Shown here: positions 6,001-8,419 of the stretch, piece after piece | How the letters are laid out: each line of letters starts with the position of its first letter | How positions within the stretch are numbered: the first letter of the stretch is position 1 | From: a virus | Lineage: Duplodnaviria > Heunggongvirae > Uroviricota > Caudoviricetes | Direction: 5' to 3' (one strand) | IMG/VR virus record: IMGVR_UViG_2663763054_000004 | Length of the DNA stretch: 8,419 nucleotides | Position numbers: made by a program

Positions 6001-8419
6001 CGGGGCGCTACCGTCAGGTGGAACAGCAGTATCATCAGTTAATCTGGCTTCAAAAGGTCGGGTAGCCGCGCTGACAGACAATACGCAGGGGGCAGCAGGT
6101 CTTGAGTTATACGAGGTGTATAACAACGGATATCCAACAGCGTATGGAAATATCATTCACCTGAAAGGGATGACAGCCGTTGGCGAAGGTGAGTTACTCA
6201 TCGGCTGGAGTGGTACAAGCGGTGCTCATGCTCCGGCATTTATTCGTTCACGACGGGATACGACCGACGCAAACTGGTCGCCGTGGGCGCAGCTTTACAC
6301 CTCGGCTCATCCTCCTGCAGAGTTTTATCCAGTCGGTGCACCAATCCCGTGGCCATCAGATACCGTTCCGTCTGGTTATGCCCTGATGCAGGGGCAGACT
6401 TTTGACAAATCTGCTTACCCGAAACTTGCAGCCGCTTATCCGTCAGGCGTGATCCCTGATATGCGTGGCTGGACGATTAAGGGCAAGCCCGCCAGTGGTC
6501 GTGCCGTATTGTCTCAGGAACAGGATGGCATTAAATCGCACACCCACAGCGCCAGCGCATCCAGTACGGATTTGGGGACGAAAACCACATCGTCGTTTGA
6601 TTACGGCACTAAATCCACGAATAACACCGGGGCGCATACGCACAGTCTGAGCGGCTCTACAAGTTCAGCTGGGGCCCACCAACATAGTCAGACTGGGCCC
6701 AGAACGAATAGCGGGAGTCAACCTACTGGAATGTTTCCGGCAGGGAGTACTCAAGTTAGCGGGACTAATCAGGTTGGTATCAGTGGCTCATTAACCAGTG
6801 GCACCTCCCAATGGGTAGGTAAATCATCTTCAGAAGGAAACCATACACACTCACTGTCCGGCACAGCAGCATCTGCGGGTGCACACGCGCATACTGTCGG
6901 TATTGGTGCTCATACGCACTCTGTTGCGATTGGTTCACATGGACACACCATCACCGTTAACGCTGCTGGTAACGCGGAAAACACCGTCAAAAACATCGCA
7001 TTTAACTATATTGTGAGGCTCGCATAATGGCATTCAGAATGAGTGAACAAGCACGGACCATAAAAATTTATAACCTGCTGGCCGGAACTAATGAATTTAT
7101 TGGTGAAGGTGACGCATATATTCCGCCTCATACAGGTCTGCCTGCAAACAGTACCGATATTGCACCGCCAGATATTCCGGCTGGTTTCGTGGCTGTTTTC
7201 AACAGTGATGAGTCATCGTGGCATCTCGTTGAAGATCATCGGGGTAAAACGGTTTATGACGTGGCTTCCGGCGACGCGTTATTTATTTCTGAACTCGGCT
7301 CATTACCGGAAAATGTCACCTGGTTATCCCCGGAAGGGGAGTTTCAGAAGTGGAACGGCACAGCCTGGGTGAAGGATACGGAAGCAGAAAAACTGTTCCG
7401 GATCCGGGAGGCGGAAGAAACAAAAAACAGCCTGATGCAGGTAGCCAGTGAGCATATAGCGCCGCTTCAGGATGCTGTGGATCTGGAGATCGCAACGGAG
7501 AAAGAAACCTTGTTGCTGGAAGCTTGGAAAAAGTATCGGGTGTTGCTGAACCGTGTTGATACATCAACTGCACCGGATATTGAATGGCCAGTAGCACCTA
7601 TAGGGTAAATTCGTAATGATTACCTAAATACGTTATTCTTTTGTTAAAAAAGTGATTTTGCTATAGGTAGGGAGTATGTTCTTGGATTAAGAATAAAAAA
7701 TCGCCATGAAAGAGCTTCATGGCGAGTACATAAACGTACAAAATGTGATGAAAGTAGAGTGGCGTAAGCCACTATATTAAGATATGACAATAGCGAAGAA
7801 AAGTAAATAACATTTTATGGACGTTTAATTGTTAATTATAAAAACTAGAGTGCCCGATATTGTTTATCTTGCTTTAAAATAATGTACTCAAACCAAATTT
7901 TTGAGCTAAAAGCTCAAATAATATAAATGCAATAATAATGTTTAATAAGACAATTAGCTTGCTTTGTATTTTCATTTCGGAATACTGTTAAGTAACTTTG
8001 ATGACCCTAACAATAGATCGGAATTTTCTTAGAGTCAATGGTCACTGTTTTTGCTTGCAAAGCAAATGTTTTGGTGGTTATAAGTCGTCTTAATATAGTC
8101 ACGCATGCAACTTGTTCCATGCGGAGATTAAAGATTGGAATATAACGCGAAGATGGAATTAAATTACATTTGCAATAATTAATTTATTATTACTCAATAA
8201 TTACCGATATTATTATTGTAAATTAATCATTAGAATGCAAAAAGAAATGTAACGGCAAAATAAGAGGACGATAGCTGAGAAAAAAGCGTGCTTTCCCAAT
8301 CTGGGGCAAATCACGTCTGAATGACACCTGAAAACAGGTGGTAGCCTCAAGAAGGCTGGTGATGCTGCCAACTTACTGATTTAGTGTATGATGGTGTTTT
8401 TGAGGTGCTCCAGTGGCTT

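Follow-up and report, generated by a model that had tools for sequence, protein, structure and literature searches.

What is held, in a lambda-like prophage, by the AT-rich DNA that lies between a tail fibre assembly gene and a copy of the insertion sequence IS1? The question is raised by positions 7609-8357 of IMG/VR record IMGVR_UViG_2663763054_000004, a stretch of 8,419 nt of Caudoviricetes DNA hereafter called the window, for which an earlier note had described an abrupt shift in composition, with short hairpins and tiny open reading frames (ORFs). The shift is real, with 31.5% GC over 7609-8357 against 52.8% over 1-7608, but the "roughly 25%" then given is the value of the trough (24.5% in the lowest 200 bp, at 7801-8000) and not that of the mean. 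The region probably holds a backward-facing moron, i.e., a unit composed of a promoter, a gene for a YncL-like peptide, a structured 3' end and a terminator, the rest being linker DNA and the fossil arm of an attachment site in the tRNA-Ser gene serU, cut by IS1.

The 33-codon gene and its resemblance to YncL

The ORF in question, MKIQSKLIVLLNIIIAFILFELLAQKFGLSTLF, lies on the minus strand, opens with an ATG at 7975, has 22% GC and is intact in 55 of the 55 copies examined, among which 31 distinct module variants and six distinct ORF sequences occur. The deepest comparison is that of the window type with the type found next to sit, differing by 78% overall; within the ORF, these two types show 18 nucleotide differences, distributed as 7/1/10 over the three codon positions, which result in only five amino-acid changes, all conservative. 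When the same substitutions were placed randomly, as few amino-acid changes were obtained in 0.013% of the permutations (P=1.3e-4). The codon-position bias and the paucity of amino-acid changes are therefore the signature of a translated gene and, judged by this substitution pattern, the 33-codon ORF is under purifying selection. The other small ORFs of the region match no family and lose their frames in the divergent lineage. As stated in the earlier note, the ORF scan found no ORF of 60 aa or more in 7609-8357, the two longest having 52 aa (8213-8371 on the minus strand, extending into IS1) and 48 aa, though this absence is uninformative by itself because it is expected at around 30% GC. What the note implied from it, namely that these ORFs are merely tiny and nothing is coding, does not stand, as the 33-codon ORF shows coding substitutions and resembles YncL; likewise, the decayed gene remnant it had envisaged found no backing, with neither pseudogene nor other feature among the matches listed and no family for the other small ORFs.

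YncL, a protein of 31 aa in Escherichia coli K-12 (b4598; NF000537, PF28073) as compared with 33 aa for the prophage peptide, is a stress-induced inner-membrane protein, whose production leads to sublethal depolarisation, a phage-shock response and nucleoid condensation, and also lowers protein synthesis and viability (PMC12542507). The NCBIfam hidden Markov model (HMM) NF000537 for YncL matches the peptide with E=1.3e-5 and 25.0 bits, in an alignment spanning profile positions 1-28 of 30, and is the sole NCBIfam family to match. The three natural variants of the peptide range from E=1.3e-5 to 7.5e-5, the other two scoring 23.5 and 22.5 bits, and YncL of K-12 itself scores 68.6. As controls, the reversed peptide, three shuffled versions and three other local small ORFs gave nothing with the same HMM up to E=10. 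By BLASTP, 11 of 28 residues (39%) are identical to K-12 YncL in an ungapped alignment running from Met1 (E=2e-7), the common residues including N12, L19-F20 and F27-G28, and both peptides share the same layout, i.e., a short polar N-terminus, one hydrophobic helix, then a basic residue followed by FG. In terms of hydropathy, the best 18-residue window of the prophage peptide (residues 7-24) reaches 2.87, giving a transmembrane-like segment, and that of YncL 2.31. No match for the peptide was obtained with local Pfam, PHROGs or PADLOC, nor with tblastn in phage records, where the low-complexity filter or the shortness of the query probably hid the copies that the phages do carry.

Upstream of the gene, the promoter scan retained a candidate sigma70-like promoter (Table 1), the -35 box of which is identical in the divergent lineage, where the -10 box reads TATCGT. 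From there, transcription is predicted to start near 8003-8007, which would give a leader of about 30 nt; at -0.4 kcal/mol, this leader is unstructured. Over the region as a whole, the scans returned five promoter-like sites where 3.9 were expected and two terminator-like sites where 0.3 were expected. A promoter-like site and a strong terminator, both defined at consensus level and both conserved in the divergent lineage, bracket the ORF on its own strand. Literal searches of the literature for the peptide and RNA sequences found none.

The conserved 3' block

Downstream of the gene and beyond a poorly conserved spacer, the minus strand carries a block of 81 nt, which folds at -27.1 kcal/mol (z=-6.8) and is the best-conserved part of the module: identity between the deep lineages is 93.8% in this block, 82% in the coding sequence (CDS) and 81.5% in the promoter and leader, and the flanks of the block stand at 60% (spacer) and 66% (towards tfa). 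Two hairpins and a terminator are predicted within it, and the single strand CUCUACUUUCAUCACAUU between the hairpins is nearly invariant across lineages, with one C/U site. Three helix positions changed on one side still pair, as G-U, provided that the RNA is the minus strand. No Rfam 15 family reaches its threshold for the block, the best being MicC with 22.8 bits against a gathering cutoff of 90 bits; the sub-threshold matches on the minus strand include models of Hfq-type small RNAs (sRNAs), namely MicC (22.8 bits), Hrs12 (18 bits) and RseX (17.2 bits). As far as the predicted fold goes, the layout is that of an sRNA without membership of a family. In that sense, the small-RNA region proposed in the earlier note is plausible, the block being conserved, strongly folding and ended by a terminator.

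At the least, the 3' block is the terminator of the unit, and there is about an even chance, on the strength of its layout, that it is also a trans-acting sRNA. It would thus serve either solely as terminator and stabiliser of the mRNA, or else also as an Hfq-type base-pairing sRNA, released from the mRNA or separately transcribed. For the latter, a candidate second promoter can be recognised by eye just upstream of the block (Table 1), with its -35 box conserved in the divergent lineage and its -10 box reading TAAGTT there, from which an independent RNA of about 78 nt could conceivably start at about 7772.

Some further candidates were tried and set aside. An apparent covariation in a helix pairing 7807-7816 with 7740-7749 is contradicted by variant L052. 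PasB, whose flanks are rich in IS009 matches as they are here, was rejected because it lies between gpI and gpJ and its probe sequence does not occur here; svsR was likewise rejected, being located at the 3' end of cI.

An inverted repeat of 12 nt, TCTTAATATAGT, has one copy at 8088-8099 and its inverted counterpart at 7771-7782. The two copies flank the small gene, about 305 bp apart and each just before a hairpin, and the pair could correspond to promoter -10 regions or to a protein-binding site. The first of these copies belongs to an upstream conserved block (8080-8186), for which no folding signal was detected on either strand (z=0.25 and -0.52) and whose conservation may be explained by a mosaic history, since two allele types exist.

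Table 1. Position, strand and supporting evidence of the features of the accessory region and its borders (window coordinates; features read on the minus strand may be given from high to low)
Feature	Position	Strand	Evidence or remark
Tail fibre assembly gene tfa	7027..7608	+	Pfam Caudo_TAP, E=4.6e-44; annotated tail fiber assembly protein in relatives
AT-rich accessory module, 578 bp, 30% GC, travelling with tfa	7609..8186		Borders are the ends of homology in class-2 and divergent loci
Conserved sRNA-like 3' block, 81 nt	7695..7775	-	Fold, terminator scan, conservation
Predicted U6 tail	7700-7695	-	Terminator scan
Predicted intrinsic terminator	7725-7701	-	Fold: 10-bp hairpin; terminator scan: 11 pairs, then TTTTTT
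Predicted small hairpin, 4 bp	7739-7726	-	Fold
Predicted 18-nt single strand CUCUACUUUCAUCACAUU	7757-7740	-	Fold
Predicted 5' hairpin, 6 bp	7773-7758	-	Fold
Candidate second promoter TTTACT-17-TATCTT	7779..7807	-	By eye, 8/12 matches, below scan threshold
Poorly conserved spacer, from stop codon to 3' block	7801..7873	-	60% identity between lineages, with indels
Small gene, 33 codons plus stop, MKIQSKLIVLLNIIIAFILFELLAQKFGLSTLF	7874..7975	-	YncL-like single-pass hydrophobic peptide
Candidate sigma70-like promoter TTGACT-17-TATTGT	8010..8038	-	Promoter scan
Upstream conserved block, containing TCTTAATATAGT	8080..8186		87% identity between window and divergent lineage; 54% in adjacent 8041-8079
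Linker, 24% GC, bio-site (class 1) version only	8187..8272		No feature identified
Phage-side arm of fossil attR, first 85 bp, 48% GC, cut by IS1	8273..8357		Relatives L003, L006 and L007
IS1 (IS1A) end, right border	8358..8419	+	Identical to elements annotated by RefSeq as IS1-like element IS1A family transposase where the junction is shared

The mosaic stretch and the fossil serU site

The accessory region begins right after the stop codon of tfa (7606-7608), in the gene order J (C-terminal part), lom, stf and tfa. With J, lom and stf upstream, the stretch therefore lies at the position of the lambda b region, with which it shares its place on the map after stf-tfa, and is best explained as accessory DNA of the proximal, "b-region-like" kind in a lambda-like prophage; here the earlier note, which had evoked the lambda b region and the accessory genes of such places, was right on both counts, the accessory gene being the 33-codon one. 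From the spread of the hits and from pairwise comparisons, 7609-8357 is a mosaic of three pieces with different histories (Table 1). The AT-rich stretch proper is limited to 7609-8272, the last 85 bp, with 48% GC, falling outside it.

The module always follows tfa directly, in prophages located at bio/ybhB, at ydfJ (the Qin site) or next to the sit operon. Its centre (query 7680-8010) was matched in 827 of the 5426 complete E. coli genomes (about 15%), and the whole 749 bp (7609-8357) are present in 280 of them as well as, at 98.5-99.6% identity, in the temperate phages mEp332, PhiR70_1 and ev099; in phage records, the module was found in 4 out of 50,697. Among the matches listed (about 180 rows from three E. 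coli searches), no annotated feature or pseudogene lies under a match. Two strains with public RNA data do not have the module where it was looked for, namely in the Qin prophage (REL606) and in PP6 (E2348/69); the equivalent end in the Qin prophage of REL606 (L060 40657-40770) holds another annotated small protein, ynfT, of the YnaM/YnfT family, and tiny genes seem to accumulate at the ends of prophages.

At both ydfJ and sit, a second 3'-end fragment of tfa, in the same orientation, comes immediately after the module (about 4580-4700 and 5333-5421 in L004, 4542-4646 in L005, 3515-3614 in L008). Being thus bracketed by tfa 3' ends, the module is suggestive of a cassette exchanged by recombination within tfa. 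In L050, L038, L009 and L064, the allele is divergent-like to the left of the terminator and window-like to its right, with a switch at the equivalent of about 7690-7700 in the window, which therefore places a recombination breakpoint at the terminator hairpin.

The last 85 bp before IS1 have another origin. In relatives free of IS1, the sequence runs on for 110 bp past the point equivalent to 8357 and then joins the last 62 nt of serU. In L003, the arm covers 6665-6859 (195 bp) and the 3' end of serU 6860-6921 (62 nt), after which K-12 serU-yodB DNA extends to 7199; these 278 bp are 97% identical to the K-12 DNA beside serU. No intact tRNA was detected at the serU relic by ARAGORN. Two other prophages bear this arm, one inserted in serU in an ST131 strain (L007), where it forms the right end, and one of O157:H7 beside uspF/ompN (L006), where it lies near the right end. 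As the arm leads into the 3' end of serU and forms the end of a serU prophage in L007, 8273-8357 is therefore the phage-side arm of an attR site. Regarding the proposal of host-junction DNA in the earlier note, it can be kept for these 85 bp only, in the form of the phage-side serU arm, host DNA itself lying beyond the insertion point of IS1. In L006 (3834-4215) and L007 (3885-4535), a tiny ORF labelled "capsid protein" in RefSeq precedes the 85-bp element by at most about 45 bp; the label looks doubtful.

In the temperate phages ev099 and mEp332 (L001-L003), the accessory region includes 60-62 nt from the 3' end of serU and 278 bp of E. coli chromosomal DNA. The free phages bearing this fossil attR integrate at the lambda site, with int and xis following. 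The best explanation for these sequences is that an ancestral phage carried off the serU junction and host DNA, as specialised transducing phages do, IS1 being inserted later with, in sister genomes, deletion of the next 550 bp. Host DNA is likewise captured in the aberrant excision that yields lambda gal and bio phages, and the intact relatives possess an attR-type junction with 278 bp of it; unlike in the lambda gal/bio type, however, the captured junction is serU, whereas the site now used is on the bio/ybhB side.

An identical IS1 junction at 8358 is shared by 79 complete E. coli genomes. Since the window stops within IS1, the far side of the element is seen in other genomes; in L058, which has the same junction, an IS1 of 768 bp stands in place of 550 bp of the intact locus and the serU relic is gone, in keeping with the truncation by IS1 that had been anticipated in the earlier note. 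Its accompanying idea of an AT-rich target is not borne out, the insertion point being located in the arm with 48% GC. The comparison with IS1-free relatives that it had called for shows the locus continuing past 8357 to the serU relic and then to an AraC-family gene, which in intact relatives lies some 1.5 kb beyond tfa. In L058 (9129-10846), IS1 ends 206 bp before this gene (247 aa; HTH_AraC and HTH_18) and could alter its expression. The 52-aa ORF at 8213-8371 is chimeric, its start having been replaced by IS1 sequence, and its counterpart in ev099 is annotated as a hypothetical protein of 55 aa (L002 5615-5782, minus strand); spanning the recombination junction at 8273 and without family match, it is probably not a gene.

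Further upstream in the window, a direct duplication links 1-1486 to 2590-3993 with 94-96% identity, so that the C-terminal part of J, lom and the N-terminal part of stf are each present in two copies. Truncation leaves 122 aa of stf in its first copy and 160 aa of lom in its second. The arrangement resembles a fusion of two related tail regions from prophages. Within the tfa CDS, Rfam IS009 (RF02111) matches 7400-7568 on the plus strand with 177 bits, and what this "sRNA" family describes seems to be the conserved 3' portion of tfa genes. IS009 is named as a frequent neighbour of prophage sRNAs in the Pas sRNA preprint.

Alternative readings and known systems

Taken as a moron, the unit 8038-7695 on the minus strand would consist of its own sigma70-type promoter, an unstructured leader, the 33-codon gene and about 180 nt of 3' region. 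Once the unit is transcribed and translated, the peptide would most likely, to judge from its homology with YncL, enter the lysogen's inner membrane and lower the membrane potential; such a depolarisation could bring about a lysogenic conversion of stress, dormancy or exclusion type, or favour retention of the prophage, and might benefit the phage or its host. A bolder version, in which one transcript would supply a depolarising peptide and, from its conserved 3' end, an Hfq-dependent sRNA reprogramming the genes of the host or of competing phages, the two forming a dual-function unit next to the tail-fibre cassette and acting as a hitherto unrecognised lysogenic-conversion or superinfection-exclusion/abortive device in some 15% of E. 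coli, is rather doubtful.

Several points weigh against the moron reading. With only three sequence lineages in existence, selection was tested chiefly through a single deep comparison. A Shine-Dalgarno sequence, present in yncL (AAGGTGG), is missing from the prophage gene, and the ORF is almost never called by gene predictors, since 1.84 billion representatives yielded only the peptide and one frameshifted variant; used as a query of the protein collection, this 43-aa variant (P0003) returned near-identical copies only. The YncL HMM scores are under the curated cutoff of 35 bits and the precomputed Pfam label of the identical peptide, PF28073:YncL, is flagged as weak. Besides, the yncL locus is patD-yncL-ortT and the 3' region of yncL differs, the prophage gene being found instead after tfa. 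Because of the sub-cutoff scores and the other genomic context, the peptide is regarded as a homologue of YncL and not as an equivalog. As regards the 3' block, none of the 20 pairs shows a two-sided change, with three one-sided changes to G-U and three breaks at helix ends in a block of little variation, and its conservation could in principle stem from a recent recombination patch; the recombinant L050 has its breakpoint at the terminator. Finally, scans with the sRNA core and the ORF pattern found the module in 0 of the 185,579 GTDB species representatives; on present evidence, it is therefore a narrow accessory element of E. coli.

The most serious contender retains the small protein and denies the sRNA: the 81-nt block would do no more than terminate the small-protein mRNA and stabilise its 3' end, in a plain one-gene moron. 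This possibility, somewhat short of even, accords with a canonical terminator closing the transcription unit, with an internal promoter candidate of 8/12 matches that the scan missed, and with an RNA showing neither an Rfam family at threshold nor covariation. Yet a terminator alone does not require CUCUACUUUCAUCACAUU to be near-invariant while the adjacent 3' untranslated region differs by 40%, and it accounts neither for the usual layout of an Hfq sRNA nor for the sub-threshold matches to Hfq-type Rfam models. A further reading, and an improbable one, is that of a type I toxin-antitoxin system, with the 33-aa peptide as membrane toxin and a nearby RNA as antitoxin, stabilising the prophage or aborting infections. 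Type I toxins such as Hok, Ldr, TisB, ZorO and ShoB are, as here, small hydrophobic membrane peptides with poor translation signals and a structured RNA, borne by mobile elements; a conserved structured RNA does adjoin the gene, and YncL depolarises the membrane and lowers viability (PMC12542507). They share no sequence similarity with the prophage peptide, however, and YncL itself is not classed as a toxin of this sort. The antitoxin is also hard to place, as consensus scans, a weak negative, found no plus-strand terminator, including for the plus-strand promoter-like site facing the ORF at 7784-7813; the sole candidate antisense hairpin (8053-8075) is not conserved, and no direct repeat provides complementarity between a divergent RNA and the mRNA. 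Moreover, the leader is short and unstructured as compared with those of hok, ldr, tisB and zorO, and the locus is single-copy and without PADLOC match.

Two other readings were weighed. That the stretch is an inert AT-rich spacer with decayed remnants, in which ORF and hairpins arose by chance and were carried along with tfa, is quite improbable. AT-rich DNA does yield hairpins and promoter-like sites, as the near-expected number of the latter attests, the region is visibly mosaic (tfa fragments, fossil att site, IS1) and no annotated feature appears among the matches listed, but chance does not fit the excess of terminator-like sites, the purifying-selection pattern of the ORF or a YncL similarity that shuffled controls do not reproduce, nor does hitch-hiking produce conservation in blocks, with 94%, 82% and 81% between spacers at 54-66%. 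Least probable of all is that the AT-rich DNA mainly serves as a long, H-NS-silenced upstream control region for the AraC-family gene. AT-rich, horizontally acquired DNA is a typical target of H-NS, and the regulator gene does lie downstream in intact relatives and sister genomes; about 540 bp of unrelated DNA, i.e., the fossil serU junction and K-12 host DNA, nevertheless stand in between, prophages at ydfJ and next to sit have the module but not the regulator, and all conserved features of the module are on the opposite strand.

The backward-facing moron with a YncL-like peptide thus remains the preferred reading. It does not overturn current understanding and provides a useful annotation together with a modest experimental lead. 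While the YncL family, the moron category and the RNA layout are already known, the novelty lies in this YncL-like member, in its residence in a prophage, in how frequent it is and in the lack of annotation: about one complete E. coli genome in seven, as well as cultured temperate phages, harbours a gene left unannotated among the matches listed. Should it be a prophage-borne paralogue of a depolarising host protein, it would offer a simple route to altered stress physiology or phage susceptibility in lysogens. The conserved RNA block may prove to be one more prophage sRNA, and the region as a whole records phage history, with a serU junction captured in free phage genomes and a later IS1.

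With respect to known systems, the 3' block would share with Hfq-dependent sRNAs derived from 3' untranslated regions the use of the mRNA terminator (PMC9438474). As in Hfq sRNAs in general, including the prophage-encoded Esr41, DicF and PasB, a predicted 5' stem-loop, a conserved open stretch and a Rho-independent terminator with U-tail follow one another, here at the 3' end of a coding unit in a lambdoid prophage. The whole unit compares best with phage morons, e.g., lom and bor of lambda or gp15 of HK97, as a small unit with its own promoter-like site and terminator (PMC3594210). It also shares with them a deviant composition, a position between conserved modules, a patchy occurrence among related phages and a membrane protein as product, a low GC content relative to the neighbours (here 30% against 53%) being typical of morons (PMC3594210). 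Unlike these named morons, the prophage gene is much smaller, with 33 aa, and is oriented opposite to the late operon.

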